Shown here: positions 16,353-43,135 of the stretch, piece by piece | How the letters are laid out: each line of letters opens with the position of its first letter | How positions within the stretch are numbered: position 1 is the first letter of the stretch | Assembly: GCA_964397755.1 (NCBI GenBank) | Contig: CAYNJY010000004.1 | Span: 1,117-65,116, forward strand | Origin: an uncultured Gammaproteobacteria bacterium | GTDB lineage: Bacteria > Patescibacteriota > Microgenomatia > UBA10105 > UBA927 | DNA length: 64,000 nucleotides | Direction of reading: 5' to 3' | Translations under genes and position numbers: made by a program | The notes under the pieces: generated by a model | What the model was told of the DNA's origin: nothing | What the model saw: only the letters and a program-made list of their open reading frames with translations | The model's database searches: none

Positions 16353-16353
16353 C

Positions 16354-25722: not shown

Positions 25723-25724
25723 GT

Positions 25725-26027: not shown

Positions 26028-26031
26028 CTAT

Positions 26032-26382: not shown

Positions 26383-26387
26383 AGCAT

Positions 26388-26792: not shown

Positions 26793-26793
26793 C

Positions 26794-27144: not shown

Positions 27145-27168
27145 ACCCCTATTGACAAGGCTCCTCTT

Positions 27169-27198
27169 GTTGCACAACAATGAATGGTAGCGTATAAT
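27169..27198 (+). promoter_or_regulatory. sigma-70 promoter upstream of pilin paralog 7
   Basis: TTGCAC, an 18-nt spacer, TATAAT, then GAGGAGG Shine-Dalgarno 7 nt before ATG 27224. Confidence 0.5.
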
Positions 27199-27223
27199 CA
27201 TTTTGTTTCACGAGGAGGACTCT

Positions 27224-27556
27224 ATGCATAAAGTGCTCGCACAGGCGAAAATTGAAATCAAGCAACCGTCTTCCATCAGAATCACTGAAATCGGACAACT
27301 CATTAGCGCGGTTGTCGGCACTCTTCTCATCGTTGCAGCCCTGTTGGCGTTCCTCTACCTCATTCTCGGAGGCATCAAGTGGATTACAAGCGGCGGAGAC
27401 AAAGCCGGCATGGAAGAAGCGCGCAATAAAATCACCCACGCAATCGTCGGACTTATTATCGTCGGCGCTGCCTGGGCCATCATGACGCTCATTCAAAACT
27501 TCCTCGGCGTCACGATCATTGGCGGAACCATTGAGTTTCCAAAGCCTTTTTTATAG
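27224..27556 (+). CDS. VirB2/TrbC-like T4SS pilin family protein (paralog 7)
   Basis: LLIVAALLAFLYLILGGIKWITSGGDKAGMEEARNKITHAIVGLIIVGAAWAIMTLI. Start at the SD-preceded ATG 27224. Confidence 0.65.
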   Translation: MHKVLAQAKIEIKQPSSIRITEIGQLISAVVGTLLIVAALLAFLYLILGGIKWITSGGDKAGMEEARNKITHAIVGLIIVGAAWAIMTLIQNFLGVTIIGGTIEFPKPFL

Positions 27557-27639
27557 GCAAAAACACTAAGGGACGTAAAAATCCTCGACGACAGCCGGGG
27601 ATTTTTGTTTTTCAGGAAATACCGTATACTCTACGTACC

Positions 27640-27969
27640 ATGATTCTCCCGCTTCTTTCCGTCATCCGGGCCGCGCCCCTCACGGATACGATCGAGGACG
27701 TTCCAACAATTCTCTCGTTCGAGTCGCTCTTCCGCAATATTGTTGGTGCCGTCGTTGCACTCTCTGGGATTGCGATTTTCATCATGCTCCTCGTCGGGGG
27801 CTTTACGTACCTCTTCTCCGGGGGTGACCAAAAAAAGCTCGAGCAAGCCCGTGGCACTATCACCAATGCTGTCGGCGGGCTTGTCATTATCGTCGCAGCC
27901 TACCTCATCCTTCAGACCATCAAGGCGTTCACCGGCGTTGACGTCACAATCTTTCGCATTCCTCGGTAA
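27640..27969 (+). CDS. VirB2/TrbC-like T4SS pilin family protein (paralog 8)
   Basis: VVALSGIAIFIMLLVGGFTYLFSGGDQKKLEQARGTITNAVGGLVIIVAAYLILQTI. Confidence 0.65.
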   Translation: MILPLLSVIRAAPLTDTIEDVPTILSFESLFRNIVGAVVALSGIAIFIMLLVGGFTYLFSGGDQKKLEQARGTITNAVGGLVIIVAAYLILQTIKAFTGVDVTIFRIPR

Positions 27970-27983
27970 CCCTACGGCGTGAT

Positions 27984-28012
27984 TGACGCAGGTGCGATTC
28001 GTAGCGCATAAT
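27984..28012 (+). promoter_or_regulatory. sigma-70 promoter upstream of the VirB6-like gene
   Basis: TTGACG, a 17-nt spacer, CATAAT, 14 nt before ATG 28026. Confidence 0.45.
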
Positions 28013-28025
28013 ACAAAGCGATACC

Positions 28026-29570
28026 ATGAAAAAACACTTTGTTCGTCTTAGTGCGTTCCTCCTCACGCTTCTTGTTGCGATCGGTCTCCTTTCTCGTCCG
28101 ACAATTGTTCGTGCCCAAGGCGCTCCTCCTAATTCTATTCAGAGCTGGTTTTCTCACACGGCGGCTAGCTTTATTCAAGATCTAGAAGCTGCACGCGCCG
28201 GCGGCATTGTGAAAGAAGCTGCAGACAGTTCAAGCATCATTAATCCGCAGCTTGTCCTTGCGTGCGAAATTCTCGGGTGCACCAATGATCTCACGCACCC
28301 GTTTGGGTACCAGCGGAGTCTCCTTGCGTTCGTCGACCGAACGGTTATTGCGATGTACGCAACACCGGTTGCGAGCACCCAGCTTTTCCTCGTTGACCTT
28401 GGAAAAAGCATCGGTCTCCTCCACCCGGCATACGCGCAGGGCGTCGGGTTCTCCGGACTTGAGCCGCTCCTTCCTATATGGAAGGCGTTTCGCAATATCG
28501 CTTACATCCTCCTTGCCATCATCCTCATCGCAGTCGGCTTCATGGTGATGCTGCGGAAGAAGATCGATCCGAAAACGGTGGTCACGGTACAAAATTCCCT
28601 TCCGCGCATCGTCGTTGCCCTTATTCTCATCACCTTCTCCTACGCAATCGTCGGACTCATGATTGACCTCATGTACCTCTCCATGCTGTTTCTCATCACG
28701 ATACTGGTCAACGCAAGCGGCGGGCTTCTCGGGAGTGATACTGCGGCAAAATACCTCGGCGGAGGATTCTGGAGTGCAGTTGGCGCGCTCTTTTCCGGAG
28801 GTATCCGCGCATTTGATGACTTTATCGCGCTTATTCCGAAGGGTGTGAGCGCAACAATTACGATTGTCCCTGGACTTCTCGCTGGCCTCTTTAGCGGAGG
28901 AAAACTGAGCGGCTTCATCACTGGCCTTGCTGCAGCACCCGCACTTTTTTTGCTTCTCATCGCCCTCGTCGTTCTCTTTGGCATAGTGCGGCTCCTGTTC
29001 ATGCTCATCGACGCCTACATCCATATCATTATCGCGCTTTTGACTGCGCCTATTCAACTTCTGTTTGATGCGATCCCGGGGGTCAACGCCTTTGGCGCGT
29101 GGTTCCGAAACCTCCTCTCCCGTCTCATCGTATTCCCGGTGACTGCCGCCATGCTCCTCATCGGCACGATTCTCACGCGCTATGAAAAAAATCCTGTCGG
29201 TATCCCTGGATTCGGGTCACAAAGCCCGGCGCTCTGGGGTCCGCCGTTTCTGACGAGCGATTCCGGCGTCCACGGCATGGCCGGGTTCATCGGCCTTGGC
29301 ATCCTCCTTTCGATCCCGATGATTGTCGCTGGGATTCAAAAAACACTCAAGGGCGAATCGATTATTCCCGGAGGCCCCGGCGCCATCTTCGGCCCAGCCG
29401 GTGCAGCATTCGGACAGCTTCTTCAGGTCGGCTACTATGGAACATTTATTACAAGCGCCTTCCGTCACAAGCAAGCAGAGAAGTCAGCCTACCAGCAGGT
29501 GCGCGAGGGAGCATCAAAAGGCATTGGGGTGCTCACAGGCGGCGGTGGAACGGGCGGTGGCGGACACTAA
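28026..29570 (+). CDS. VirB6/TrbL-like polytopic T4SS membrane protein
   Basis: 514 aa. Signal peptide, a roughly 130 aa N-terminal extracytoplasmic segment, then 7 or more TM helices with Gly-rich loops and a Gly-rich C-terminus. It is immediately downstream of the pilin array. Confidence 0.5.
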   Translation: MKKHFVRLSAFLLTLLVAIGLLSRPTIVRAQGAPPNSIQSWFSHTAASFIQDLEAARAGGIVKEAADSSSIINPQLVLACEILGCTNDLTHPFGYQRSLLAFVDRTVIAMYATPVASTQLFLVDLGKSIGLLHPAYAQGVGFSGLEPLLPIWKAFRNIAYILLAIILIAVGFMVMLRKKIDPKTVVTVQNSLPRIVVALILITFSYAIVGLMIDLMYLSMLFLITILVNASGGLLGSDTAAKYLGGGFWSAVGALFSGGIRAFDDFIALIPKGVSATITIVPGLLAGLFSGGKLSGFITGLAAAPALFLLLIALVVLFGIVRLLFMLIDAYIHIIIALLTAPIQLLFDAIPGVNAFGAWFRNLLSRLIVFPVTAAMLLIGTILTRYEKNPVGIPGFGSQSPALWGPPFLTSDSGVHGMAGFIGLGILLSIPMIVAGIQKTLKGESIIPGGPGAIFGPAGAAFGQLLQVGYYGTFITSAFRHKQAEKSAYQQVREGASKGIGVLTGGGGTGGGGH

Positions 29571-29583
29571 CACCATATTGACG

Positions 29584-32500
29584 TTAATGGCCGCCCTTTT
29601 TCTCTTCTTCTGCAATCGCTTTTTCCGCAGCCACCGCAATCGTCGCAGCCACAAGGACCCACCAATATTTGCGTGCCATTGCAAGCATTCGCCAGTTGAG
29701 CGTGGTTTTGAATTCCTTCCGCAGGTCATGGGCAAGCTCAGGTTTATCCGTGAACAACCCCATGTCCTCCATGGTATTGATGACCTCTTGAATCTTAAAC
29801 TCGTCCCACGCATTACCTTCAGAACCGGTGTAGCGGACTGAATACGAAATCGCCTGAGCGATCGAGTGCGGCCAGTGAGAGACCCGTTTTTCGGCGATGT
29901 TGTGCCACCTGCCATTGGTTAGTTTATTGAGAAGTTTATTGTCCTTCCAGTCCCGAGCATCAATTTCGTGGGCGTGCTTCATAAGCGTAGAAAGCCCGGG
30001 GACCCAACCAACGCTCCGCAGTGACCGGTGGCGGTTGAACTCGATGAACACCCGCGCGAGCTCCTTCATGACCGGTTCAGAAACTGGCGTGCCTACGTAG
30101 TTATTGATCGCGGCGCGAATTTTATAGAAGTGCTTAATCGTCTCTACCGGATCATTCGGCGACATAAGACTCGCTTCTGACATAAAGGCGAGGATCCCAT
30201 CCCTCGTCTCCATTTGATTGCCGATATCGCGAATCCTGCGGTGCATCGCAATCGAACCAAGTTGGAAAAAGTTTACGTCTTTCCAGTTAAAATCTGTTAG
30301 AGACAATGTGAGGGGCAATGCTTCGTTCGCGATCGCTTCGAGTATTGATTTATACTGGATGCCTTCGATCTTCGTATCTCTTCTTTTTGTAAGCTCTTCC
30401 TGCATGTCAACGAGTACGCCGCGGAGTGCCTCAAACCTTCCTTCAGGAACGCCTCTTGTTCGTAAAAATGGCACGATAACTGCGTCGAAATCTTCCTTTT
30501 TTGCAAGATCCATCTTCGCGAGGCTAAACCTCTTATCATCGTACAGCTTCACCTCGGCAAGTGAAAGAGCGCCTTGAAACGACCCCCATTCTTCCTTTGT
30601 AATTCCTCGTTTTTCAAGAATCCTACCCGTATCGTCGCGAAGAAGAGAGAGGAACTTCGATGGATTCCGGCGCATCATGCGCTCGAGAATACCCATCCTT
30701 CTGCCAGGACTTTTTTCTACTAGAAACTGAATGCTAAGCGCCTGATTTTCAAGCTGGGCTCCGTCGGGAAGTTTCTGCATCTCGAGGACTTTATTCCGAA
30801 CTTGCTCTGCCGCGCCTTTGTCTATCCTCCAGGCGCTCCCGTCCATTTGGCCGCCGCCTGAGAGGAATCCCGGTCCCAGAAGTTCGGTGAAGGAGATGCC
30901 GGTATTTTGCTCGGCAAACTCCATAACCTCCATGGCATAGCGCACCTCGGGATGCTTCTCTGTTTTGAATCGCTCCTTCCACTCTTTGGTCTGGGTGACT
31001 TTAAAGCCTCTCGGCGCTTCCTGTTTCTTCGTCATTCTGAGGTTTCTCCGGAGTATTCCGCGGGCGGTTTTGCCCATCTCGCCACCGATATTAAACCTAT
31101 GCGCGAATGCTTCTGGGTTAAAGATCCGAACCAAATCCTCAAACGCCGGCGCGCGCATGACGTCTTTTCCAGACGGCGCCGCAAACTCCGGGTACTCGTA
31201 GCGGGCTGGAGTAGACATGAAGGCGCTGATTGCCGCCATGCGACCGCTTCCGATCATGGCAGTTCGTGCCGCCCAGATAGCCATCCGAACCTTCCATTCT
31301 GGAGGATCCCCGTTTTCTCCCATTACCTCCCCCTTCATTTTACCCTCTGTTTTGAGATACTCGAGCAACCGCTCTCGAACTTCGATATCAATAGGCGACA
31401 GTCCGCGGGTTGCAATGAGTTCCTTGGTGTAACTCTCGTCCAGAGTCGCCTTCCGACGGCTGTAGAGTGTGTAGAGCTTGTTTGCACGCTCGAGCTCCTC
31501 CTGCTCAATCTCAGTAAGCGTCCCTCCTTTGTTGAGTTTTTCCACAAGTGCATCTCTGTATGCTCGTGTTTTTTCAAGAACAAGATACACCTCTGTGTAG
31601 CTGAGGACATCATCGTCCCAGAGGGAAACTCCTTCTGCCGCAAGATCCCGCTTTGCCTCAATCTCAAGCATCATTCTCTGCTCTTCGGTTGTCAGGGTGC
31701 CGTACGTGGTTTCTCCCGGCGTGGCGCCGGGAACTTCCTCTGCGTGTTTCTCTCGTAGAATCTTGAGTAAGTCCTCGCGGCTTATACGCCTCTTTTCATA
31801 GAGGGCTTTATTGGGGTTTTCTATAGCCTTTTTCCCGACTTTTTTCTCCGGTGGAGCTTTGCCGAAGAGCGGATTGTCTACCTCCTCCTTCAAAAATCGT
31901 ATAGCCTCTTGGTACTTGCCTTGCCTTTCGGCAAGCGTTTCGGCAACCACGTGTTCGTAGAGGCTCGCCGCGTAGTTTGAAAATTCGTAGTTTTTATAGA
32001 GGTGGTCAAGATCAGCTCCCGTGAGGAGCGCCATTGCTTTGAGCCGGTCCTTGACGTCGCCGGGGTTGTAGAGAAGCCCTTTGACTGCGTATTCGTAGGT
32101 ACCGCGACCATCCCAGTGCTTCTGGTAGAGCTCGTTGACTAGGTTGTACTCTGCGCCGTACTTCCACCGCAGGTACCGCTTAAACTCTTCAAACTTCTGC
32201 ATCTGTGGCAGGTCCGGGTGCGATTGCTCCTTTCCCAACCGGTAAATTTCGTCAATGAAGTTAAAGTACCAATCTGCCTCTCCGTCCGACCCGTTTCGTA
32301 TGTTTCTCACCTCATCCTCACCGAAATAATCTGAAAAAATATAATCTTCTTTTCCGATTCTCTCTGCCCGTTCGCGTTCAGCCTTCGGCGCTTGGCTGGC
32401 AATGTCGTCCCATCGGACGACGCGCTCCCCGAAGCGCTGTTTCCGACTACTTTCAAGCTGTGTCACGGAAGCATGCGCAGAAATTTCTTGGAGTATCTTG

Positions 32501-33237
32501 AGGCGCTTTCCTATTTCTTCCCGTACTATTGGGTCCTCGAACTGCTTCGCGCCGAGCTCCCGGATGCTTTGGATGTAGTGTTCAAGCTCTTTGGGATTCT
32601 GCGCTGCCTGCGCATCAAGGGTAAGCTCGCGTTTAATCTGCTGTATGCGGCCTCCGACCTCTGTGTCTTTCAATGGATCGATCTTATCGGCATACAGATT
32701 GTCAATCAGACCATCAAGACGGACTATGGGGGTGTCTAAAATTTCGTGGAATTCTGCTCTCAGCGTCGGCTGGTGTTCTGTGATTCTACGCAGGTACCGC
32801 GCAGCTTCCCTCCCTGCGGGGCTATGAATTTTTTCGTCTTCAATAATTGCCTTGAGTTTCTCCCCGACGCGGCGTAGGTACGCGGGGTCTACAAGGCGTG
32901 CCTCGTCAGCAGAAGCCATCTCTTCAACTGCCTCAAAAACGCGGAGGTTCCTTGGCTTCTCGCCGCCTAAAATTTTTCTCGCTGCTTCTGACGAACTTTC
33001 TGCAAGTTTCTTTGTAAGTTCCTCAAGTCTATCCGCAGGGATGTCGTGTTTCTCGGTTTTTCTCTTTGGCTTCTTGGCTTCCTCTTCTCCCCCCGGAGGT
33101 TTCTCGGGCTCTTTGGGTACTTCTGCCCCGGGCACCGCGGCATCTGCCGGCGGCTTCTCCGACGGAGGACCTCCAGCTCCGCCCCCAGCTTTTCCTCCCA
33201 GTGCACCCGGTCCTTTGAGTACTTCTTCACCAGCCAT
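29584..33237 (-). CDS. very large hypothetical protein (about 1217 aa) with disordered Gly/Pro/Glu/Lys-rich N-terminus and C-terminal TM anchor
   Basis: Start assigned to MAGEEVLKGPGALGGKAGGG. The body is predicted largely alpha-helical with no recognisable catalytic motif. The C-terminus is ...RKYWWVLVAATIAVAAEKAIAEEEKKGGH. It is convergent with the VirB6-like gene. Confidence 0.55.
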   Translation of the reverse strand: MAGEEVLKGPGALGGKAGGGAGGPPSEKPPADAAVPGAEVPKEPEKPPGGEEEAKKPKRKTEKHDIPADRLEELTKKLAESSSEAARKILGGEKPRNLRVFEAVEEMASADEARLVDPAYLRRVGEKLKAIIEDEKIHSPAGREAARYLRRITEHQPTLRAEFHEILDTPIVRLDGLIDNLYADKIDPLKDTEVGGRIQQIKRELTLDAQAAQNPKELEHYIQSIRELGAKQFEDPIVREEIGKRLKILQEISAHASVTQLESSRKQRFGERVVRWDDIASQAPKAERERAERIGKEDYIFSDYFGEDEVRNIRNGSDGEADWYFNFIDEIYRLGKEQSHPDLPQMQKFEEFKRYLRWKYGAEYNLVNELYQKHWDGRGTYEYAVKGLLYNPGDVKDRLKAMALLTGADLDHLYKNYEFSNYAASLYEHVVAETLAERQGKYQEAIRFLKEEVDNPLFGKAPPEKKVGKKAIENPNKALYEKRRISREDLLKILREKHAEEVPGATPGETTYGTLTTEEQRMMLEIEAKRDLAAEGVSLWDDDVLSYTEVYLVLEKTRAYRDALVEKLNKGGTLTEIEQEELERANKLYTLYSRRKATLDESYTKELIATRGLSPIDIEVRERLLEYLKTEGKMKGEVMGENGDPPEWKVRMAIWAARTAMIGSGRMAAISAFMSTPARYEYPEFAAPSGKDVMRAPAFEDLVRIFNPEAFAHRFNIGGEMGKTARGILRRNLRMTKKQEAPRGFKVTQTKEWKERFKTEKHPEVRYAMEVMEFAEQNTGISFTELLGPGFLSGGGQMDGSAWRIDKGAAEQVRNKVLEMQKLPDGAQLENQALSIQFLVEKSPGRRMGILERMMRRNPSKFLSLLRDDTGRILEKRGITKEEWGSFQGALSLAEVKLYDDKRFSLAKMDLAKKEDFDAVIVPFLRTRGVPEGRFEALRGVLVDMQEELTKRRDTKIEGIQYKSILEAIANEALPLTLSLTDFNWKDVNFFQLGSIAMHRRIRDIGNQMETRDGILAFMSEASLMSPNDPVETIKHFYKIRAAINNYVGTPVSEPVMKELARVFIEFNRHRSLRSVGWVPGLSTLMKHAHEIDARDWKDNKLLNKLTNGRWHNIAEKRVSHWPHSIAQAISYSVRYTGSEGNAWDEFKIQEVINTMEDMGLFTDKPELAHDLRKEFKTTLNWRMLAMARKYWWVLVAATIAVAAEKAIAEEEKKGGH

Positions 33238-33353
33238 AGAAAAATCGCGCCACTGTGACGCTCTCCTGACTATTCTACTGCCACGAAATGCCGGGCGCAA
33301 GCACAGAATACTAGTTGTCGTCAGCCTGTATTACATCACTTTAGAATCCCCGC

Positions 33354-34130
33354 CTAGGGGAGAAATGGGAGATGGTGTTTGAAGCTGTTCTTTTTTACCC
33401 ACGCTTTAACTTTCTCAACTACCCCATATGGGATTCTCTTCATGACAATCTCCTTCGTGGACTTTCTCTTATCGTAAAGAAGAAAAAGGATTTCATCGGC
33501 TTGCGCGTAGCTAAAGCCAAAGTCGCCTTCATCGGTCTGGCCCTCCCAGAGCCCGGCTGTGGGAGTCTTCTCTACAATTACTTCCGGAACACCTAGATAC
33601 CGTGCCAGTTGGTACACCTGGGTTTTGTAGAGCCCTCTCAGCGGTTCTACGTCGCTTGCCTCATCGCCAAAGCGGGTGTAATAACCGAGCATATGCTCAC
33701 TTTTATTCTCTGTACCGATAACCAGCGCGTGGCGCTTCTTTGCCTGATCAAAAAGGAGGGTCATCCGCACCCGGGCCATGATGTTTCCCCGCCGAACTCG
33801 ATCCATCGCAGGATCGCGACTCACCATCGGGTCAACGAAAGGCGCAATGTTAACCATAACAGCGTTTTCTACTGGAATCTCTAAAGACGTGATCACCGCC
33901 TGCGCGTCCTCCAAACCCTGTGGATTGAGGCCTTTATACGGAAGAAGCACGGGGCAGACGTTTCCCTTTCCGAGCGCACGAACGGCAAGCGCACAGGCCG
34001 TTGCCGAGTCGACGCCACCAGAGAGCGCAATCACCGCGCGAGAAAAACCCTCTTTCTCAAAAGAAGACGATAAAAAAGAAACGAGTTCGAGCATCGTTTT
34101 TTTGGTATCAACCTCCAGTAATTTCTTCAT
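33354..34130 (-). CDS. nadE: NH3-dependent NAD+ synthetase
   Basis: 258 aa with PP-loop SGGVDS (IALSGGVDSATACALAV) and the NadE fold. Confidence 0.85.
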   Translation of the reverse strand: MKKLLEVDTKKTMLELVSFLSSSFEKEGFSRAVIALSGGVDSATACALAVRALGKGNVCPVLLPYKGLNPQGLEDAQAVITSLEIPVENAVMVNIAPFVDPMVSRDPAMDRVRRGNIMARVRMTLLFDQAKKRHALVIGTENKSEHMLGYYTRFGDEASDVEPLRGLYKTQVYQLARYLGVPEVIVEKTPTAGLWEGQTDEGDFGFSYAQADEILFLLYDKRKSTKEIVMKRIPYGVVEKVKAWVKKNSFKHHLPFLP

Positions 34131-34148
34131 AGCTTTTCAATCTGGAAT

Positions 34149-34706
34149 TTACGTGTAGAGTCCGTGTTTCTCGATATACGCCGCTACGTCTTTCGGCACG
34201 AACTGGTCGACGGAAAATCCCCTAGCAACGCGCTCGCGGATCTTTGTGGAGGAGATGTCGGTTGTCATAAGAAGCTCGTGGGTGAGAAGCGTCATGTTGG
34301 GGTACAGGGGCTTATTGGGATAGCCCTGCCGCGGAAACACAACGAAGGGAAGCTTCTTAACAAGCTCCTCCCAGTGGCCCCACTCATGAAATCGCGGCAG
34401 CCAGTCGCTCCCGATGACGAATCGGTATTCGTGTTCTTTCGGCAGATACGGAAGAAGGCTGATGGTACTCCCGTCAAGTTTGTGATCTATCTCGATCGTC
34501 GAGACGCGCGCGCGCGGAAGCGAAAGGAGCCTGACCATTGCTCGGCGATGGGAAGTCTCCGCGACTCCTGGTTTCGGCGGGTTCTGGCCGTAGCTTGGGA
34601 GAAACCACAGTTCGTCAGCGTCAGAGAAATCGAGAACTTGCCGTGCGATGAGGACGTGGCCCAGGTGCGGTGGGTTAAAGACCCCCCCAAAAAGAGCTAG
34701 TTTCAT
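34149..34706 (-). CDS. nadD: nicotinate-nucleotide adenylyltransferase
   Basis: 185 aa with GGVFNPPHLGHVLIA (the HxGH motif) and a C-terminal ISSTKIR motif. Confidence 0.85.
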   Translation of the reverse strand: MKLALFGGVFNPPHLGHVLIARQVLDFSDADELWFLPSYGQNPPKPGVAETSHRRAMVRLLSLPRARVSTIEIDHKLDGSTISLLPYLPKEHEYRFVIGSDWLPRFHEWGHWEELVKKLPFVVFPRQGYPNKPLYPNMTLLTHELLMTTDISSTKIRERVARGFSVDQFVPKDVAAYIEKHGLYT

Positions 34707-34775
34707 ACGTTGCCTATTATAATTCGTGAAAAGAAAAATTGGTAGTTTTCACGATTCTGATGCGCTTTTTTATAC

Positions 34776-34804
34776 TTGATGCCAGCGGTATAACCTTCTA
34801 CAAT
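34776..34804 (+). promoter_or_regulatory. sigma-70 promoter upstream of the T4SS-like operon
   Basis: TTGATG, a 17-nt spacer, TACAAT, about 40 nt upstream of ATG 34844. Confidence 0.4.
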
Positions 34805-34843
34805 ACTTTCTGCGGCTCTCAGTGTATACTTTGCTATCAACGA

Positions 34844-35950
34844 ATGATGAACACGCGACCTATGGAGCAACACCCAGTACCACAAAATGTCACAACGTTC
34901 CAGTTTCGCCTTGTTGGCGACATGACCATCAAGCAGTTTGGGTATCTTGCCGCCGGGGCGATCCTCGCATTCGTAAGTTACAAGTTGCCGCTTCCTTTAT
35001 TCTTTACGTGGCCGCTGACGAGCTTCTTTACCTTTTTAGGCATTGGATTTGCCTTTGTCCCGATCGAAGAGCGACCGATGGACGTCTGGGTTTTTTCATT
35101 TCTCCGAAGTGTCTACAGTCCCACGCAGTACGTGTGGCAACCGCGGCCGGTAGCCCACGTACAGGAACCTCCGAAACCTCCGAACGGTAACGGCCGTAAA
35201 CAGGCCTATCCTTCCCCTGTGTCAAAAGAAGCCTCACTGATGTCAAAGCTTTTTGATGCCTTTGGCATGCCCGCGCGTAAGCCCGAAACTTCCCCACGCG
35301 TTCTGCCGACCCAACAAAAACAGGAGGTCCCCTCGCCTGCCGAGCTTGCGGCTCTTGCCGGTCGCATATCCCAGCTTCAGCATGAGGTTGAAACAAAACA
35401 TAAAACAGAAGATCGGCTCCTTGAGCTTCAATCGCAGCTCACCGCTCTGCTTGCCGACAAGAAGCGGCTTGAGGACAGACTCATGTCTCTCGGGCACGCG
35501 CAAAGCGCACAAACATCACCGTTATCAAAACCAGCCCCTACCTTACCGGTAAACACTCCGGGTGCGACAGTCAAGGTTATTGGTCCGGCACAAGCGCCGC
35601 GTATTGGCATACCAAAACTTACAACTGTGCCAAACGTGCCTTCTGGCATCATCAAAGACAATCAGGGGAACTTTCTCCCCGGAGTCATTGTGACAATTCG
35701 GGATGCGGAGGGGATTCCTCTTCGGGCGCTCAAGACGAATAAACTCGGACAGTTTGCAGCATCCACTCCACTCACCAACGGAACCTACACTGTAGAGGTT
35801 GAGGATCCGCGCGCTCGCTATGTCTTTGACCGCGCGCAGATACCGCTCTCTGGCGCGGTCGTGCCCGCGCTTGAAATAACAGCAATAAGCCAGAAAGAAA
35901 TTTCCCGGCAAAAACTTGCACAGCAAATATTCGGCGACCAAAACATATAG
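34844..35950 (+). CDS. T4SS-associated membrane protein (two-TM N-domain, Pro-rich linker, coiled coil, C-terminal beta-rich domain)
   Basis: Start at ATG 34844. FQFRLVGDMTIKQFGYLAAGAILAFV plus a second TM helix, then a coiled coil (LQHEVETKHKTEDRLLELQSQLTALLADKKRLEDRL), then about 130 aa C-terminal. It is directly upstream of VirB4, the position of VirB3/VirB8-like components. Confidence 0.45.
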   Translation: MMNTRPMEQHPVPQNVTTFQFRLVGDMTIKQFGYLAAGAILAFVSYKLPLPLFFTWPLTSFFTFLGIGFAFVPIEERPMDVWVFSFLRSVYSPTQYVWQPRPVAHVQEPPKPPNGNGRKQAYPSPVSKEASLMSKLFDAFGMPARKPETSPRVLPTQQKQEVPSPAELAALAGRISQLQHEVETKHKTEDRLLELQSQLTALLADKKRLEDRLMSLGHAQSAQTSPLSKPAPTLPVNTPGATVKVIGPAQAPRIGIPKLTTVPNVPSGIIKDNQGNFLPGVIVTIRDAEGIPLRALKTNKLGQFAASTPLTNGTYTVEVEDPRARYVFDRAQIPLSGAVVPALEITAISQKEISRQKLAQQIFGDQNI

Positions 35951-35953
35951 CCC

Positions 35954-36643
35954 ATGACAGACCCAGTCGCTCCCATAAAAGATTCTACGCAAATGTTTAC
36001 AGAAATTGAGGACGTGAAAGACGGCGTCATCCTTTTCATAGATGGTTCAGCTGCAATGATTGTGTCTGTCTCTGCGGTAAACTTTGGCCTGCTCTCAGAG
36101 AGAGAGCAGGACGCGATTATCTATGCATACGCCGGGTTTCTAAATTCCCTCTCGTTCCCAATCCAGATCCTTGTTCGCACCCAGCAGAAAGACGTCACGG
36201 CATACCTTCGCTCCCTTGAGGAGCAACAAGAACGGCAGAAAAATCCGAAGCTTGTGGGGAGTATCAAGGCGTACCGCGCTTTCATCGCAACAACCGTGAA
36301 GGAAAAAGACGTGCTTGATAAAAAATTCTACATCGTGATTCCTTTTTCTAACCTTGAACTCGGCGCTGCGCCGTCACTTCTCTTTGGCACGACGAAGAAA
36401 CGCGGCCTTCCCTACCCGAAACCGTATATCTGGGAAAAGGCAAAAACGGCTCTCTCTCCCAAGAGAGACCACGTCATTCGGATTCTCGCGCGCGTCGGGC
36501 TTCGCTCGACGGCTATGACGGACGAGCTCATCGTCCGACTCTTTTTTGGCATATACAACCCAGGGAGCCCAGCACCCGTCCTTCCTTTAGATACCATCCA
36601 GCCGCACAAGCTCGTGTCGGGCGCACCGACTATGCTGCCGTAG
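35954..36643 (+). CDS. VirB4-like ATPase, N-terminal segment separated by an in-frame TAG
   Basis: 229 aa. It is in the same frame as the downstream ATPase ORF, interrupted only by TAG 36641-36643 followed by 5 sense codons. Confidence 0.5.
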   Translation: MTDPVAPIKDSTQMFTEIEDVKDGVILFIDGSAAMIVSVSAVNFGLLSEREQDAIIYAYAGFLNSLSFPIQILVRTQQKDVTAYLRSLEEQQERQKNPKLVGSIKAYRAFIATTVKEKDVLDKKFYIVIPFSNLELGAAPSLLFGTTKKRGLPYPKPYIWEKAKTALSPKRDHVIRILARVGLRSTAMTDELIVRLFFGIYNPGSPAPVLPLDTIQPHKLVSGAPTMLP

Positions 36644-36658
36644 AAGAACGCCCTGCCT

Positions 36659-38557
36659 ATGAACCTTTCGTCAATGATTCAACAATTTCTCCGGCCCCCT
36701 GCCGCCGATCCTACGATACAAACGCCGCCCGGGCGACTCATGACACCGACTGATATTGTTGCACCGCCAGCAATTGAGGTGGACTTCGATCACCTTAAAA
36801 TCGGCGAGTGGCACTATCGAACCCTCTTTGTGGCGGGGTATCCTCGATTTGTCAGCTCAAATTGGCTTGAACCACTCATCTCCTTTGGTCATACGCTCGA
36901 TATTTCAATGTTTATCTACCCTGCTCGCTCAGGGGAAATCCTCGACAACCTCAAGCGGAAAGTCGGCGAGATGGAAGCGACAATTCAGTCTGATCTCAAA
37001 CGCGGCAAAACCATAGAACCGTCGGTTCAAATTGCACTCGAGGACGCCCTCACACTGCAACAGGACCTCGCCAAAGGAGCGCAGCGCTTCTTTCAATTCG
37101 GCCTCTACATTACCATCCCAGCAAAAACAAAAGAAGATCTCGACAAGACAACGAAGCAGATAGAGGCTACTCTCGGATCCCTCCTTGTCGTAAGCAAGAA
37201 AGCGACGCTACAAATGGAAGAAGGCTTCAAAACGACGCTTCCGATTGGAAAAGACCGGCTCCTCGTGACGCGGAATATGGATACGACCTCCCTTGCGGCC
37301 ACCTTCCCTTTCACGACCTCAGAGCTCTCCGCCAACGAGGGCATCCTTTACGGCATTAACACCGGCAACGACAGCCTCATTGTGTTTGACCGCTTCTCTT
37401 TGGAAAACGCCAACGCGGTCGTCTTCGGCAAATCGGGCTCGGGAAAATCGTACCTGATCAAGCTGGAAATTATGCGCAGCCTCATGTTTGATACCGACGT
37501 CATTGTGATCGACCCTGAAAATGAGTATGAAGCGCTGACCTACGCCCTTGGCGGCGAGTATGTTCGCTTTCATTTCGGGGCGGCCACAAAAATCAACCCG
37601 TTTGATCTCGCCATTCTGACAGGAAAAACGCGAGACGACGAAAACGAGCTCAACCAAAAAATACTCTCTCTCCACGGCTTCTTTCGCGTTGTCATGGGCG
37701 CGCTTACCCCGACAGAGGACGCTCTCCTCGATCGCGCACTCGTGCTTTCATATAAACAGAAAGGGATGACCCCTGATCCTACGACGCAAAAGGCTGAGCC
37801 GCCCCTCATGGAAGATCTCTACAAGGTGCTCGTCGGCATGGAAGATCCCGTCGCACGATCTCTCGCAGACCGGATCGAAAAGTTTGTCAAAGGAAGCTTG
37901 GTTGGCATTTTTGACGAGCAGACAAACATAGAGATACGAAATCAGCTCACTGTTTTCTCTATTCGGGATCTTGAAAATGAGCTCCGCCCCATTGCGATGC
38001 ACCTAATACTCGATTTTATATCGAACAAAATTCGGCGTGACACCAAAACGCGGCTCCTTGTCGTTGACGAGGCGTGGTACCTCATGAAATTTCCAGACTC
38101 TGCACAGTTTCTGAACTCAATCGCAAAGCGAGCGAGAAAATATTTCCTGGGCCTGACAACCATTACACAGGATGTCGAGGATTTTCTCGCGGTCGATCTT
38201 GGAAAAACGATTATTCAAAACAGCAGTCTTCAAATTCTCCTCAAACAGTCGCCTGCGGCAATCGACACGGTCGCAAATCTTTTCTACCTGTCAGAGGGAG
38301 AGAAAAGGCTCCTCTTGTCTGCGGGCGTCGGCCAGGGCCTCTTTTTTGCCGGTCCAGCCCACGCATCGATGCGCGTCGTTGCAAGCCCGGAGGAACACGC
38401 GCTGGCTACCACCCATCCGAAAGACATCTATGAGAATGCGGGGCCGGGAGGAAGGGATATCCCCCATCTCCCAGAGCAACGCCCAGGCGTATCTACCAAT
38501 CGGCCGGTATTCACTGTTGAGCCAGTGCAGAAAGAGACCCCCTCGTCCGATGTGTAA
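36659..38557 (+). CDS. VirB4/TrbE-like T4SS ATPase (C-terminal segment with Walker motifs)
   Basis: Walker A VVFGKSGSGKSY, Walker B RLLVVDEAWYLM. Together with the upstream segment the length is about 860 aa, typical for VirB4. Confidence 0.75.
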   Translation: MNLSSMIQQFLRPPAADPTIQTPPGRLMTPTDIVAPPAIEVDFDHLKIGEWHYRTLFVAGYPRFVSSNWLEPLISFGHTLDISMFIYPARSGEILDNLKRKVGEMEATIQSDLKRGKTIEPSVQIALEDALTLQQDLAKGAQRFFQFGLYITIPAKTKEDLDKTTKQIEATLGSLLVVSKKATLQMEEGFKTTLPIGKDRLLVTRNMDTTSLAATFPFTTSELSANEGILYGINTGNDSLIVFDRFSLENANAVVFGKSGSGKSYLIKLEIMRSLMFDTDVIVIDPENEYEALTYALGGEYVRFHFGAATKINPFDLAILTGKTRDDENELNQKILSLHGFFRVVMGALTPTEDALLDRALVLSYKQKGMTPDPTTQKAEPPLMEDLYKVLVGMEDPVARSLADRIEKFVKGSLVGIFDEQTNIEIRNQLTVFSIRDLENELRPIAMHLILDFISNKIRRDTKTRLLVVDEAWYLMKFPDSAQFLNSIAKRARKYFLGLTTITQDVEDFLAVDLGKTIIQNSSLQILLKQSPAAIDTVANLFYLSEGEKRLLLSAGVGQGLFFAGPAHASMRVVASPEEHALATTHPKDIYENAGPGGRDIPHLPEQRPGVSTNRPVFTVEPVQKETPSSDV

Positions 38558-38576
38558 TTTGTCACGCTAAACACGT

Positions 38577-40805
38577 ATGGAAGCGGAATCACTGCTCCTT
38601 CTTGATTTTCTTGAACGCATAGTCCAAGAGCTAGCGAAGGAGAAGGGCGTCCCGGTAAGCGCAGCCCGGGCATATATCGAGAGCCAACAGTACCCGTTTC
38701 TCCGTCAGTTTCTGTCCGCGAGAAAGGAGGGGCTGATCCAGTCATTTCTCGCGGGGGACCGCGCGTTTACCAATGCGCTTCTTCGGCTTCTCCGCGAGGC
38801 GCGCATGAGCGTCCGTGAGCAACTAACGGCATTCCAAAAAGAAAAACCAGATACGCCACTTTCACCCCAAGAGGTCGTCCAGAGGGCCCTCTACTGGCAG
38901 GAGGCTCAGAAAACTATCGCCCACGCGCAAGAAAACTACCTTCTCGCTGCGCGCGGAAAGCGTAGGCAGCGCGTTCACGATCTTATAGCCCGATGGGTGT
39001 CCGAACAAAAAAACGAAACCCTCTCATCTTCCCTCCCCGACCTTATTCGTCAAGCAGACAGCGCGCTCGGGAAGCAGAATCAATACGGCGATGTTCTCTA
39101 CACGGTAAGCTCGCTCCTTCGCGCGCGTAAAGAAACGCAACCGTTCTTTGAGAAAAATCCAGATCTTTTAAGAGATATCGCCCTCCGGGTTCCTCCGCCT
39201 CGTGAAGAAACCCAGCTTGCCAAATCAGCCTCTATGCTTCAGCTGTCTCTTGGTGCGGCTCTTGTTTCCTCTCCGCTCCTCACCAGGGCGGATTACCTTG
39301 CCGGGCTTCTAGTCCAAGGCGTCGACGTCAGTCGGACTCTCTCCATTGTGAGAGTTCTCGAAGCGCTCGACTCTCCGTTACCGCTTGATGAGCTCCTCTC
39401 CTGCGGCCGCGTGTTTCGGTCTCTCTCAAAAAGCCCAATCCAGAAAACCTTTGCGCCACTTGCTGATTCTGTTTTCCTCCGACTGCCGAGAGGGACCAGG
39501 CGCGCTATCCTCGAGAAGGTGGTTGGTCGGTCGCTTGAACACGCGCTCGATTACCTTCAGCGATCGCTCGGCGCTGCCATTATCAACACCCCGGCATACC
39601 AGTCGCTTCTTGTCACACAAAACACTCTCTTGGGCGGCCCTCCTCTCTCGCTTGCCCTGTCCGGATTCTCCAAGTTTACGGGTGACATTTTTACGACAAT
39701 CTTTCGTGGACCAAACGAGGCTGCCATTCTGTATTTTGAGGCGTCTCGAAGATCTATCGGTCAAGGAAGTCCGCTGGGCCTCTCGCCTCTTCTCTCCGGC
39801 TCCCTTGCACTCTCTTTCCCAACCCTCTATAAAACGTACTTCGATCCTGTATCTGGTCGGTGGGCAGTCGGAACGCAATCGTCTCTTCGGAGGATCGCTG
39901 CTTTTGGCTCGGGCGCAGCTTCGCGCGCAGGGCGTGGCTTGTTCGGTTTCGCATCCCGCATCCTCGGCACAGGGCTCCTTGCGATCGGCGCACTCCTCCA
40001 AGCTGGGTTTGGCGGTCTCATTAGCGCTCTCTCCGGGGGCAAAGTCTCACTCTCTCTTCGTCAAGCCATTCACGGAATTTTTCCTCCAACAAAGCTTACA
40101 GATGACCTTCCGAAGCTTATCTCGGTATCAACGACGATCGCCATAGTCCTTCTTTTTGTCCTCCCGACATTTTTTAACCCCTCGTTTACTTCCTGGCTCA
40201 GCAAAACGAGCGCACTCCTGGTGAGTCTTGCGAGCCCAGAGGCACAGGGGGGGCCAGTCCCAAAATACCCCCAGGCACCCTGTGTTCCAACGAGCCAGGG
40301 ATTGTGCAGGTGGCCAACCGCTGGATGCATCTCTCAGGGACCATACAGCCCGTGGCCAGGATCCCATAGAGGAGGAGCTGCCAACGCGATCGACATCTCG
40401 GCCTCAAGCGGAACGACGGTCACCTCAACAATACAAGGGCGCGTCGAGGCGGTCTATGCTCGGTGTTTTGATAACTCAGGATACCGAGGGAACACCTGTG
40501 GCGGCGGCTACGGCAACTATGTTGTCGTCATATCGAGCGATGGAACTATCCGACTCCTCTACGGTCACCTCTCGCGCCGAGGACTCCCGAGGCCCGGTGC
40601 GCTCGTCTCTCTCGGAGCCCCCCTTGGAAACGTTGATCAAACTGGCAATTCGAGCGGGCCACACCTTCACTACCAACTCGACAGCGCACAACACATAAAC
40701 AGCAGGCTCCCGTTCCCGGTTCCCTCTTGTATCGGAAAGGCCCTTTGTGATGCAGCCATCCGTCTCCAATCGAAAGGAAAATACACATGCAACGTAAAAC
40801 CATAG
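38577..40805 (+). CDS. transmembrane M23-family peptidoglycan endopeptidase with large N-terminal cytoplasmic domain
   Basis: 742 aa. About 480 aa N-terminal domain of unknown function, two TM helices, then an M23 domain (GSHRGGAANAIDIS ... GNSSGPHLHYQLD). Confidence 0.7.
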   Translation: MEAESLLLLDFLERIVQELAKEKGVPVSAARAYIESQQYPFLRQFLSARKEGLIQSFLAGDRAFTNALLRLLREARMSVREQLTAFQKEKPDTPLSPQEVVQRALYWQEAQKTIAHAQENYLLAARGKRRQRVHDLIARWVSEQKNETLSSSLPDLIRQADSALGKQNQYGDVLYTVSSLLRARKETQPFFEKNPDLLRDIALRVPPPREETQLAKSASMLQLSLGAALVSSPLLTRADYLAGLLVQGVDVSRTLSIVRVLEALDSPLPLDELLSCGRVFRSLSKSPIQKTFAPLADSVFLRLPRGTRRAILEKVVGRSLEHALDYLQRSLGAAIINTPAYQSLLVTQNTLLGGPPLSLALSGFSKFTGDIFTTIFRGPNEAAILYFEASRRSIGQGSPLGLSPLLSGSLALSFPTLYKTYFDPVSGRWAVGTQSSLRRIAAFGSGAASRAGRGLFGFASRILGTGLLAIGALLQAGFGGLISALSGGKVSLSLRQAIHGIFPPTKLTDDLPKLISVSTTIAIVLLFVLPTFFNPSFTSWLSKTSALLVSLASPEAQGGPVPKYPQAPCVPTSQGLCRWPTAGCISQGPYSPWPGSHRGGAANAIDISASSGTTVTSTIQGRVEAVYARCFDNSGYRGNTCGGGYGNYVVVISSDGTIRLLYGHLSRRGLPRPGALVSLGAPLGNVDQTGNSSGPHLHYQLDSAQHINSRLPFPVPSCIGKALCDAAIRLQSKGKYTCNVKP

Positions 40806-41737
40806 TACTATTTCTCTTTCTCATCGTCCTCGTCTCGGCGATTGTCGGTGAGTACCTTTCTCGAAAAACAGTAGGCACGAAGCCGCCATCTCAGGAGGAA
40901 CAACGCTCTCTTCCTCGGCCTGTATCGACGGAAGATTTCGTGCCGACAGCGCCTCGCGACGTTACCTTCTCTCCCCTTCCTCAACCACAACAGCCCCCAC
41001 GGGAATACACGACCTTTCACGCCTCCTTCTCTTATAGTCCTGTCGCGCTTACGGAAAGGCTCGCGTCGGACATGGGCCTTGCGCTAACCCAAGCTCAAGA
41101 CGAGGGGGGCCTCAGATTCAGGCAGTGGGAGTCAACTCCCACCTCTCTCTCGCTCATGATCGATGGTGGAATCGCTTCTCTTTCGCTGCAGAACGAGGCA
41201 ACGGGTGCAGGGGCCACGTCAGTAAGCGTCGAGCAGGCGTTCCAATACTTCCTCGTTCGATTTCTCCCTCCAGTTGCTCACGTGCCCAAGGCACTCATAA
41301 AAAGGGAGGAAACCCCGGAGGGCTTTCTTTTCCTTGCCTACCAGTTTCTTATCCGGGACGCGCCGATGCTTCTTGCCAACTATGATCCCGTGTCGCTCGC
41401 GGTCCAGCTAGACGGGAGCGGAGCCGTGCGATCGCTCTCTCTTGTTTTTCCTCCGGACCAAACGGTAGCACAGGAGCAAAGGCTGTCTCTGACGCCCCAA
41501 GAGATCGAAGGTGGCCTCAACGACAATCGCGGGCTCCTCATCTACTCGCTTGATTCGGAAGATAACCCGTACGGATCAACGCCCGTCTTCAACCATGTCT
41601 CGGTGCGGGGAACGACACTCGCCTACCTCCTTAATCCCGACGCAAAGCTCCTTCTTCCTGTTTACCTCATCGATGGTGTTGGCGAATCTGAAGAAAAATT
41701 ACAAGTCGTCCGCTACCTTATCCGGGCAACACACTAG
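40787..41737 (+). CDS. hypothetical membrane-anchored protein (last gene of the T4SS-like operon)
   Basis: 316 aa. N-terminal TM helix (IVLFLFLIVLVSAIVG), then an extracytoplasmic domain. It overlaps the upstream gene by 19 nt. Confidence 0.45.
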   Translation: MQRKTIVLFLFLIVLVSAIVGEYLSRKTVGTKPPSQEEQRSLPRPVSTEDFVPTAPRDVTFSPLPQPQQPPREYTTFHASFSYSPVALTERLASDMGLALTQAQDEGGLRFRQWESTPTSLSLMIDGGIASLSLQNEATGAGATSVSVEQAFQYFLVRFLPPVAHVPKALIKREETPEGFLFLAYQFLIRDAPMLLANYDPVSLAVQLDGSGAVRSLSLVFPPDQTVAQEQRLSLTPQEIEGGLNDNRGLLIYSLDSEDNPYGSTPVFNHVSVRGTTLAYLLNPDAKLLLPVYLIDGVGESEEKLQVVRYLIRATH

Positions 41738-41851: not shown

Positions 41852-42958
41852 CTATGTTTGGACGCGAACAGGCATGATTATGTGGAGAAAAGAGGCGTCT
41901 TTCACTGGTTTAAAAACACCCGGGTTCAGCGACCCAGTCATCTCAAAAAGAAATTCCTCGTCTGAAAAATTCGCAAGAAAATCAAGAAGAAACCTGCTGT
42001 TAAATGCAATCTCCCCTCCTTCTCCATCAATCTTTGCAGACATCGTCGCGCTCCCCCCTCCAACGAGGGGCGCGTTTGCGCTGACCGTAAGCTTCTGTCC
42101 CTCAAGCGCGAGGCGGACAATGTTTGCGTTGTCGCGGGCAAACACCGAAGCAGACCTGGTTGCCCTTGTAAACGACTCCCTGTCCAAAAGGGCGCGCGTC
42201 GTAAAGCTCTTTGGAATAATTTTTTCGTACTTTGGAAACTCGCCGTCGAGAAGCCTCGTGGTAAGACGTGTGTCCCCTATCGTAAATTCAAGCTGGTTGT
42301 CTTTTGCAAATACGGCGTGGGCTTCTTTTTCTTCTTTCTCTTCCTGAGCAACGCGGATGAGCTCTTGAAGAGCGCGGGCTGGAATCACCATGTCGGGAAT
42401 GGTTTTCGTGGAAACTTCAACCCGTCCGACAGAGAGCCTGTACCCGTCAGTTGCAGCAAGAATAAGGGCGTCTTTTTCCCCGTGCAGCTTGGCACCGGTT
42501 AGTATTGGTCTCCCCTCGTCTGTTGCCGCAGCGAACGCCACTCGTGAAAGCGCTCCCACAAAGACGTCTTTATCGAGCGTGATTTCTGTTCCTCTGCCTG
42601 CCGGGGGAACTGGTGGGAACTCTGTTGCTGGAAGTGTTGGGAAAGCAGCAGTAAACCCTTCGCATTCAAGCCGAAACTCCTCTTTTATCAACGACACGTG
42701 CACGGTTCCGGCTGGAAGAGACGACACAAATTCACTGAGCGTCTTTGCCGGAACACACACGTCCCCTTCTTTTTCTACTTTCGCCCCTATCCACGTAGAT
42801 TCTGTCGTTTCTAGGTTTGTTGCGGTTATGTAAACACCGTCTTTCGTTGCCTGAAGGAGAAAGTTTTGAACGACCGGAAGCTGGGGGCGGGAGGGGATTG
42901 TCCTCCCTGTTCTTGTTATTGCCCGAAGGAAATTTTCTTGTAAGAGAGAGGCTTTCAT
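41852..42958 (-). CDS. dnaN: DNA polymerase III beta sliding clamp
   Basis: 368 aa with three-domain clamp architecture. It is immediately downstream of dnaA. Confidence 0.9.
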   Translation of the reverse strand: MKASLLQENFLRAITRTGRTIPSRPQLPVVQNFLLQATKDGVYITATNLETTESTWIGAKVEKEGDVCVPAKTLSEFVSSLPAGTVHVSLIKEEFRLECEGFTAAFPTLPATEFPPVPPAGRGTEITLDKDVFVGALSRVAFAAATDEGRPILTGAKLHGEKDALILAATDGYRLSVGRVEVSTKTIPDMVIPARALQELIRVAQEEKEEKEAHAVFAKDNQLEFTIGDTRLTTRLLDGEFPKYEKIIPKSFTTRALLDRESFTRATRSASVFARDNANIVRLALEGQKLTVSANAPLVGGGSATMSAKIDGEGGEIAFNSRFLLDFLANFSDEEFLFEMTGSLNPGVFKPVKDASFLHIIMPVRVQT

Positions 42959-43135
42959 GTGTATATACCTAGTTGTAGTAGAAGAGGCCAGCGTGGAGAA
43001 GTGTATTGCTTTTTGTTCCGGGTGTCAACGGCGGAGGTTTTGAGGTTTTTAGAGAGGGGAAAAAGGTGGGTTTTTATGTGGAAAAGGATGTGGATAAAAA
43101 GGAAAAAATTGTGGAAAAGTGGATAACCCCAGTTT
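42959..43135. promoter_or_regulatory. DnaA-box cluster in the dnaA-dnaN intergenic region (origin element)
   Basis: Perfect box TGTGGATAA at 43089-43097, near-perfect GTGGATAAC at 43119-43127, TTATGTCCACA at about 43133-43143. AT-rich flanks. Confidence 0.55.

Follow-up and report, generated by a model that had tools for sequence, protein, structure and literature searches.

A five-gene type IV secretion operon beside the replication origin

A 64,000-nt stretch of contig CAYNJY010000004.1 (assembly GCA_964397755.1, positions 1,117 to 65,116, forward strand; hereafter the window), deposited as an uncultured Gammaproteobacteria bacterium and placed by GTDB in the Microgenomatia of the Patescibacteriota, was analyzed for a gene cluster that an earlier reading of the letters alone (the original prediction) had described as a Gram-positive-style type IV secretion system (T4SS) core. 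The cluster was found to consist of five tightly packed, co-directional open reading frames (ORFs) at 34844-41737 on the forward strand, not the six counted earlier, which encode in order a PrgI/VirB3-like protein, a TrsD-like protein, a VirB4 ATPase, a predicted membrane-bound M23 wall hydrolase and a bitopic membrane protein of 316 aa, here termed p316 (Table 1). The successive junctions are gaps of 3, 15 and 19 nt and an overlap of 19 nt, and thus the five genes form one tight operon. Pfam and hydropathy analyses bore out the earlier product descriptions of a coiled-coil protein with two transmembrane (TM) segments, a 742-aa M23 protein and a membrane-anchored 316-aa protein. With pilins also identified upstream (see below), the pilin, VirB3-like, VirB4 and wall hydrolase components of the proposed core are all accounted for.

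The location of the operon between nadD and dnaN, near the replication origin, was likewise supported by its flanking genes, by DnaA boxes and by GC skew. Four DnaA boxes are positioned at 43077-43126, between dnaA and dnaN, and the window as a whole has 19 DnaA-box matches with at most one mismatch, compared with 8.75 +/- 3.07 in shuffled sequences. The cumulative GC skew reaches its minimum and turns at about 42-43 kb. Together, the box cluster and the skew turn place the end of the operon about 1.3 kb from the likely origin (oriC). The sigma-70-type promoter that had been proposed ahead of the operon is not supported statistically, as the matches in the region 5′ of the prgI-like gene score 9/12 and are no commoner than in shuffled sequences (five such sites vs 4.0 +/- 1.9).

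Table 1. Genes and features of the T4SS locus and its surroundings (positions are those of the window)
Feature	Position	Strand	Description
PrgI/VirB3-like protein	ORF 34739-35950, likely start 34844 or 34862	+	368 aa from ATG 34844; PF12666, PF13620
TrsD-like protein	35954-36643	+	229 aa; no Pfam match alone; NCBIfam matches
VirB4 ATPase	36659-38557	+	632 aa; PF19044 E=2.7e-24, PF12846, PF03135
Predicted membrane M23 hydrolase, VirB1 analogue	38577-40805	+	742 aa; Peptidase_M23 at residues 603-703, E=6.4e-15
p316 (316-aa bitopic membrane protein)	40787-41737	+	N-terminal TM helix; no Pfam match
nadD	34149-34706	-	left flank, with nadE (-) also left
Divergent intergenic region, nadD/prgI-like	34707-34843		137 bp; two weak sigma-70-like matches, 34748-34776 and 34776-34804
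dnaN	41852-42958	-	right flank
dnaA	43136-44572	-	right flank, beyond dnaN
Six divergent VirB2-like pilin genes	25689-27969	+	PF18895 T4SS_pilin, E 1e-10 to 6e-4, three over gathering score; two TM segments each
514-aa polytopic membrane protein	28026-29570	+	signal peptide, ~7 TM segments; VirB6-like candidate
1238-aa soluble protein, C-terminal TM anchor	29584-33300	-	neighbour of 7-TM gene; candidate member of the system
Seventh, solitary T4SS_pilin paralogue	16330-16707	+	PF18895 E=8.3e-9, over gathering score
comFC	9446-10273
Thermonuclease (membrane-anchored SNase)	61463-62305

The PrgI-like, TrsD-like and VirB4 proteins

The product of the first gene matches the PrgI family (PF12666) at E=5.7e-6 and 27.2 bits, barely over the Pfam gathering score of 27, and has homologues in 79 sources (78 loci of the relatives described below and the window). 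Its architecture includes an N-terminal TM hairpin predicted by hydropathy, a Pro-rich linker, a coiled coil and a C-terminal CarboxypepD_reg-like beta-sandwich (PF13620, E=1.3e-5), the last of which was absent from the original prediction. The orthologue of one related locus (L001) aligns from 34862, the second of the two likely starts.

The next two genes had been described as two VirB4 segments, which proved a fair description, as the 229-aa and 632-aa products align to successive parts of long VirB4 models. The 229-aa protein aligns to positions 126-235 of the 894 in the mycoplasma VirB4 model VirB4_plasma (NCBIfam, E=1.8e-5) and to positions 30-142 of 201 in the TrsD model NF041427 (E=7.6e-5), in both cases under the curated cutoff. 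Its family is strongly conserved, with 37 invariant columns and members in 80 of 84 loci; 10 of 23 members weakly match PF11130 (TraC_F_IV), and a profile search against the Protein Data Bank (PDB) returned nothing significant. The 632-aa protein aligns to (i) positions 185-730 of 752 in NF045971 (conju_CD1110), at 391.5 bits against a cutoff of 325; (ii) positions 297-875 of 894 in the mycoplasma model (E=1.3e-73); and (iii) positions 249-726 of 792 in TIGR00929 (VirB4_CagE, E=5.4e-45). Both Walker motifs, A (GKSGSGKS) and B (LLVVDEAW), are intact; the profile score assigns the protein to the CD1110 (MPF_FATA-type) family, and with its nearest named homologues it is probably of the Patescibacteria-clade type. 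The possibility that the TrsD-like protein is a paralogue of the N-terminal domain retained by VirB4 was rejected, as hhalign gave no significant alignment of its family to the first 245 residues of the local VirB4 family. The consecutive alignments to the VirB4 models, taken with this lack of similarity, indicate that the 229-aa protein is the counterpart of the segment preceding what the 632-aa VirB4 keeps; by sequence, the pair corresponds to the known TrsD plus VirB4 arrangement, with no broken gene. The same arrangement is found in pGO1, and TrsD is the most abundant T4SS component in Patescibacteria (PMC12102498). Profile searches against T4SS components, suggested earlier as a check, returned PrgI, TrsD (below its curated cutoff) and the CD1110-type VirB4.

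The wall hydrolase and p316

The 742-aa protein is predicted to be an M23 (LytM-type) wall hydrolase. Its M23 domain scores 55.6 bits against PF01551 (cutoff 28.7), and the zinc ligands are present (H597...D606 and H696-L-H698), with a histidine-to-aspartate spacing that exceeds the classical HxxxD. Hydropathy places two to three TM segments at residues 455-532. The 450-aa N-terminal domain that precedes them had been said to have no known counterpart, and it indeed matched nothing in Pfam, NCBIfam or the PDB sequences. Sixteen of 24 orthologues carry an M23 domain, and in others the same scaffold bears Peptidase_C39_2, SLT_3 or another Zn-peptidase-like domain, so that the scaffold appears from sequence to be modular, with interchangeable catalytic domains.

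The p316 gene is always found directly 3′ of the hydrolase gene, and in two loci (L063 and L066) the pair has moved together upstream of prgI. The p316 family evolves fast, at 13-31% identity, and the number of homologues recovered depended on the search: a single sequence found itself alone, a profile of 23 sequences found two proteins, and an exhaustive representative search found 63, the low initial numbers being due to a word index too coarse for such a family. No Pfam match and no PDB sequence match was detected for p316; although Pfam YycI was matched by 3 of 23 family members (best E=0.004), membership in Pfam YycI, YycH or PepSY was above threshold for none.

Structure prediction by AlphaFold2 was useless from the single sequence (predicted local distance difference test, pLDDT, 40); with 58 sequences from the exhaustive search it reached a pLDDT of 92.2 and a predicted template modelling score (pTM) of 0.82. 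The model has an N-terminal TM helix and a Pro-rich linker, followed by three tandem helix-plus-beta-sheet domains of the PepSY-like alpha/beta type. Its best fold match was 5coz, an uncharacterised protein of Eubacterium rectale (score 12.9; Foldseek agrees, E=3.7e-8), followed by YycI (11.4), YycH (9.3), the C-terminal domain of YpeB (9.2), the M36 propeptide (8.7) and the M4 propeptide (7.1). Thus, p316 is confidently modelled as a YycI/YycH/YpeB-like protein of tandem PepSY-like domains. A VirB8-like identity, which would entail an NTF2-like fold, was rejected because no VirB8, TcpC, TraM or PrgL structure was among the fold matches; the topology is shared but the fold is not. Of the label 'VirB3/8-like' used in the original prediction, the VirB3 part therefore stands, in the PrgI-like protein, and the VirB8 part does not.

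YycI, YycH, YpeB and the M4 and M36 propeptides regulate or chaperone wall-hydrolase or peptidase activity. By likeness to the YpeB-SleB pair and to PepSY propeptides, we suggest that p316 may position or restrain the hydrolase. The suggested regulatory role is an analogy. p316 differs from YycI and YycH (regulators of WalK) and from YpeB (partner of the cortex-lytic enzyme SleB) in having no sequence-level match to them, and those proteins are set in a two-component system or in spore germination, whereas p316 is set in a T4SS operon. In this locus the otherwise empty 'VirB8 slot' is taken by a YycI/PepSY-like protein genetically coupled to the wall hydrolase, a point that could help those working on the system.

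Genes upstream of the operon

The original prediction had placed a pilin array and a VirB6-like gene 5 kb upstream; the gene of a 514-aa protein with about seven TM segments (7-TM) is indeed at about 5 kb, but the pilin array is at 7-9 kb. The VirB6-like label fits the 514-aa protein in topology and position and is not borne out by its sequence, since PF04610 (TrbL/VirB6) was touched by only 2 of 15 family members (E>=0.16); a profile search of the family against PDB gave nothing significant. The 7-TM gene is a conserved neighbour in 35 loci, and VirB6 is scarce in Microgenomatia generally (PMC12102498). Beside it, on the opposite strand, the 1238-aa protein has orthologues in the same position in 15 loci, with a mean column identity of 47%, and no match in Pfam, NCBIfam or PDB sequences; it may be part of the T4SS.

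A 28-nt stretch at 27432-27459, within the region for the second TM helix of a pilin (THAIVGLII), recurs at 28636-28663 in the 514-aa gene (SYAIVGLMI) at 86% identity and in two other pilins at 71-75% identity; it may be a shared motif or a trace of gene conversion. The solitary seventh pilin gene is 9 kb from the six-gene array, beside uppS and the mevalonate operon. Divergent from the array (24231-25695, -) are genes for an extracytoplasmic function (ECF)-type sigma factor (25111-25695), a possible anti-sigma factor, namely a TM protein of 75 aa (24887-25114), and a membrane protein with a Yip1 domain. These three genes could regulate the pilin array; tblastn found no counterparts in the fetched loci, most of which end short of that upstream region.

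Conservation of the locus among relatives

The best database matches to the VirB4 were 72-78% identical, with Patescibacteria or Candidatus Gottesmanbacteria as the named sources, and the search scored at least 8000 candidates, all at E <= 1e-10. For synteny, one genome per GTDB species was scanned, a sample that does not include the window's own genome, and 80 loci were found with a VirB4 60-77% identical, from Gottesmanbacteria, Woesebacteria, Beckwithbacteria, Shapirobacteria, Chisholmbacteria, Roizmanbacteria and other Microgenomates. Many of the loci numbered L006-L084 were deposited as 'uncultured Gammaproteobacteria', 'Pseudomonadales', 'Clostridia', 'Nevskiaceae' or 'Bathyarchaeia', names that look like taxonomic mislabels in the public records.

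The order PrgI-TrsD-VirB4, then a protein of 470-1400 aa (often M23), a protein of about 130-360 aa, dnaN and dnaA was seen in nearly all 84 loci. In the closer half of the loci the upstream order was also kept, namely pilins, the 7-TM protein, the giant protein on the minus strand, nadE in some cases, and nadD. The conserved order beside dnaN-dnaA indicates that the locus is inherited vertically at a fixed, origin-adjacent site, and its recurrence in nearly all of the 80 species genomes sustains the earlier claim that the apparatus is chromosomally fixed. Also as claimed earlier, Pfam scans of the approximately 50 ORFs of the window revealed no relaxase, VirD4 or integrase; att-like flanking direct repeats were not found, and the GC content of the operon is like that of its flanks. 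The combination of relaxase, VirD4, integrase and att sites that would mark an ordinary integrated conjugative element is therefore lacking from the window, and this, together with the synteny and the GC content, excludes such an element.

The pilin array, the 7-TM gene and the operon (25689-41737, +) are transcribed toward oriC at about 43.1 kb and hence head-on to the leftward replication fork. The GC skew is negative throughout this interval, and the convergent orientation of virB4 and dnaN is kept in nearly all 84 loci. A head-on orientation is unusual for an essential operon proposed as highly expressed.

Variable presence of a VirD4-like ATPase

The original prediction had stressed the lack of a visible coupling protein. 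In the window, tblastn with the protein of relatives found no trace of a VirD4-like gene over the 64 kb, and only 137 bp separate nadD from prgI. However, a gene for a VirD4-like protein of 724-761 aa is found between nadD and prgI, divergent from prgI, in about 30 of the 38 closest loci, with DUF8128, DUF87, TrwB_AAD_bind and TraG-D_C domains and weak NCBIfam matches to TraD and to the VirD4-like CD1115. VirD4 is thus absent from the window, although its absence does not define the system. The adjacent gene is also absent at L010, L014, L022 (in the complete chromosome OY969569.1), L035 and L037, and the loci without it are scattered on a rough neighbour-joining tree of VirB4, which suggests repeated, independent loss or relocation. 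Among Patescibacteria generally, 5,713 VirD4 homologues have been counted in 2,918 genomes, only 148 of them near virB4 (PMC12102498). The co-occurrence in one clade of variants with and without an adjacent VirD4-like ATPase provides a comparative handle on the need for a coupling protein.

In the VirD4-like ATPase of the relatives the DUF8128 region is N-terminal, and in the sequence from L001 (5672-7855 of that locus, -) no TM segments are obvious near the N terminus, in contrast to canonical type IV coupling proteins (T4CPs). The ATPase also weakly matches the archaeal DNA-translocating ATPase CedD (E=2.9e-9).

Relationship to known systems

The locus is an ordinary member of a system already described, and one more example from the Microgenomatia. 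In Southlakia epibionticum, Wang et al. 2023 (PMC10633639) reported that a T4SS (SEML1_0006-0019) and its pilin genes are essential, and that neither a coupling protein nor a relaxase is recognisable. Quiñonero-Coronel et al. 2025 (PMC12102498) surveyed the phylum and described (i) a distinct Patescibacteria VirB4 clade related to MPF_FATA; (ii) TrsD and PrgI, together with VirB2 arrays that are seen particularly in Microgenomatia and Saccharimonadia; (iii) hydrolases of the M23 type, with VirB6 and VirB8 scarce, relaxases rare and few T4CPs close to virB4; and (iv) T4SS loci near dnaA/dnaN in Paceibacteria and Microgenomatia. A 2025 FEMS review treats the system as a recognised T4SS subtype (PMC12857230). 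The novelty implied by the original prediction is thus not sustained, as the absence of relaxase, the proximity to dnaA, TrsD and the pilin arrays had all been published (PMC12102498).

The locus shares with this Patescibacteria-clade T4SS a VirB4 of MPF_FATA ancestry with adjacent TrsD and PrgI/VirB3, an array of divergent VirB2-like pilins (six here and six in S. epibionticum), a peptidase-type wall hydrolase directly 3′ of virB4, the lack of a relaxase and a chromosomal site by dnaA/dnaN. The points that we add are modest: the YycI/PepSY-like hydrolase partner, the modular heads of the hydrolase, and a VirD4-like gene that appears to have been lost or relocated repeatedly from its place beside the operon. 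The available portions of PMC12102498 and PMC10633639 do not report the YycI/PepSY-like protein, the swappable hydrolase domains or the adjacent VirD4-like gene of the Gottesmanbacteria-like clade.

Likeness to the monoderm MPF_FATA systems (Trs of pGO1/pSK41, Prg of pCF10, the Clostridioides difficile CTn, and Tn916/ICEBs1) is seen in the VirB4, which passes the CD1110 model; in the separate TrsD-like N-terminal segment, as in the TrsD plus TrsE of pGO1; and in the PrgI-type VirB3 and the membrane-anchored multidomain wall hydrolase. PrgK of pCF10 has a LytM/M23 domain. In contrast to these systems, the window's locus has no relaxase, origin of transfer (oriT), integrase or adhesin, has VirB2-like pilins that monoderm conjugation systems lack, has no detected VirB8-like (PrgL/TcpC/TraM) protein and occupies a fixed chromosomal site. 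With the T4CP-independent T4SSs (Helicobacter ComB, Bordetella Ptl and Brucella VirB) the locus shares the lack of a coupling protein and a relaxase; however, those are diderm systems with VirB7/9/10 core complexes, whereas the absence of a T4CP here is lineage-specific and may reflect gene relocation.

Proposed function and alternative explanations

We consider it probable, at about 0.85, that the locus is a chromosomal, origin-adjacent, relaxase-free T4SS typical of Patescibacteria (candidate phyla radiation, CPR), which derives from the conjugation machinery of monoderms (MPF_FATA) but no longer serves that purpose. For its operation, including the direction of transport and the substrate, we infer the following steps. 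The PrgI/VirB3-like hairpin protein and the TrsD-like protein would dock the VirB4 ATPase at the membrane, and VirB4 would power the extraction and assembly of the VirB2-like pilins (six plus one), with the 7-TM VirB6-like candidate. The M23 hydrolase would open the cell wall locally, while p316, whose gene overlaps the end of the hydrolase gene, may position or restrain it. The product would be a pilus or conduit at the site of contact with a host cell, which would swap macromolecules with the host or grip it rather than send out the cell's own DNA. No T4SS before that of Patescibacteria had been shown to be essential for growth of its own cell, and the system may have a central part in the feeding of these ultrasmall epibionts on their hosts.

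Several points weigh against this interpretation. The one experimental model of the system, S. epibionticum, lies outside the Microgenomatia, and even in Saccharibacteria the role of the system has been called 'completely unknown' (PMC11665869). The VirB6 identity of the 514-aa protein is without sequence support, and no VirB8-like component was found. Only two TM segments of the hydrolase exceed the hydropathy threshold, which, taken literally, would have its N-terminal domain and its M23 domain face the same compartment; a cytoplasmic N-terminal domain would depend on a third, weaker segment, deduced from the positive-inside rule. Most close relatives have a VirD4-like ATPase beside the operon, so that substrate export through a coupling protein may occur in the clade, and the source genome of the window may encode a coupling protein elsewhere.

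The last point bears on an alternative that we rate as rather unlikely, in which the machine exports effectors or other proteins into a bacterial host, as do the Streptococcus suis 89K or Xanthomonas-type killing T4SSs, with the VirD4-like ATPase recruiting the substrates. Such export has been speculated on (PMC10633639, PMC11665869), the VirD4-like gene is adjacent in most of the closest loci, and the conserved 1238-aa tail-anchored protein by the 7-TM gene could be cargo or scaffold. However, several apparently independent losses or relocations have taken the T4CP gene out of the locus, in the window among others, the T4CP (VirD4) homologue of S. epibionticum is not essential (PMC12102498), and the locus has no effector-like genes with recognisable toxin domains. 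DNA import by a machine like Helicobacter ComB or archaeal Ced, which would use host or environmental DNA as a nucleotide source together with comFC/comEC and a secreted nuclease, also seems unlikely to us. It would suit a window with neither T4CP nor relaxase, and the idea has been raised before (PMC12102498, PMC11665869). The VirB4 matches the CedB DNA-import model, if weakly and far under the cutoff (E=5.5e-14), and both comFC and the thermonuclease named in the original prediction were confirmed within the window, the latter as a membrane-anchored SNase. Yet comFC is 25 kb and the nuclease 20 kb away, and in the loci examined neither keeps a conserved link to the T4SS; most relatives have a VirD4-like ATPase, which ComB systems lack; and in S. 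epibionticum deletion of comEC ends competence with viability kept, while the T4SS is essential (PMC12857230), so that the essential role there is not exerted through ComEC.

The derivation of the parts from monoderm conjugation systems (CD1110-family VirB4, TrsD and PrgI) and the VirD4-like gene beside the operon in relatives could also be explained by an integrated conjugative element, or its decayed remnant, near the origin, with the relaxase, T4CP and integrase lost or outside the window. We regard this as most improbable and largely refuted by synteny, since the gene order and the nadD, dnaN and dnaA flanks are the same in 80 species at the VirB4 identities given above. In addition, all operon genes are intact, the composition is native with no integrase, relaxase or att-like repeats found in the window, and few relaxases have been counted across the phylum (109 homologues, in 103 Patescibacteria genomes) compared with VirB4-linked components in thousands (PMC12102498).

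Within the relaxase-free T4SS reading, a more speculative proposal, which we think quite unlikely, is that the hydrolase and p316 form a self-contained two-gene module in the place of VirB1/VirB8, with a catalytic head (M23, C39-like or SLT-like) swapped between lineages. Where the two cells meet, such a module might cut the wall of the host, instead of or besides the cell's own wall, with the PepSY-like protein as gatekeeper. If so, the repeated loss of the adjacent VirD4-like gene, as in the window, would mean that the machine can do without a coupling protein and act as a pilus or a conduit for import.

Other features of the window

The window also holds a mevalonate pathway, DUF4012, an ECF sigma factor, rnpA-yidC-khpB by dnaA, and a transfer-messenger RNA (tmRNA) with SmpB, content that fits a small patescibacterial chromosome. 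The tmRNA (134 bits) adjoins smpB (10596-11150), within 10201-11150 (-), and the longest comFC ORF, which extends to 10273, overlaps it; the true comFC start is therefore probably further downstream. A 639-aa ORF at 11048-12967 was considered as a hidden rRNA gene or a relaxase and rejected, as it encodes a membrane-anchored protein with no family match and Rfam detected no rRNA there. The region 6000-10000 is of low GC content (0.42-0.46 vs 0.52) and carries six tRNA genes (four Ser and two Arg), along with two overlapping ORFs (6600-7091 and 7042-7614) with no family match. At 57860-58837 (+), a second, smaller M23 peptidase of 325 aa (E=1.7e-22), unrelated to the T4SS operon, has a weak C-terminal HTH_11-like match.

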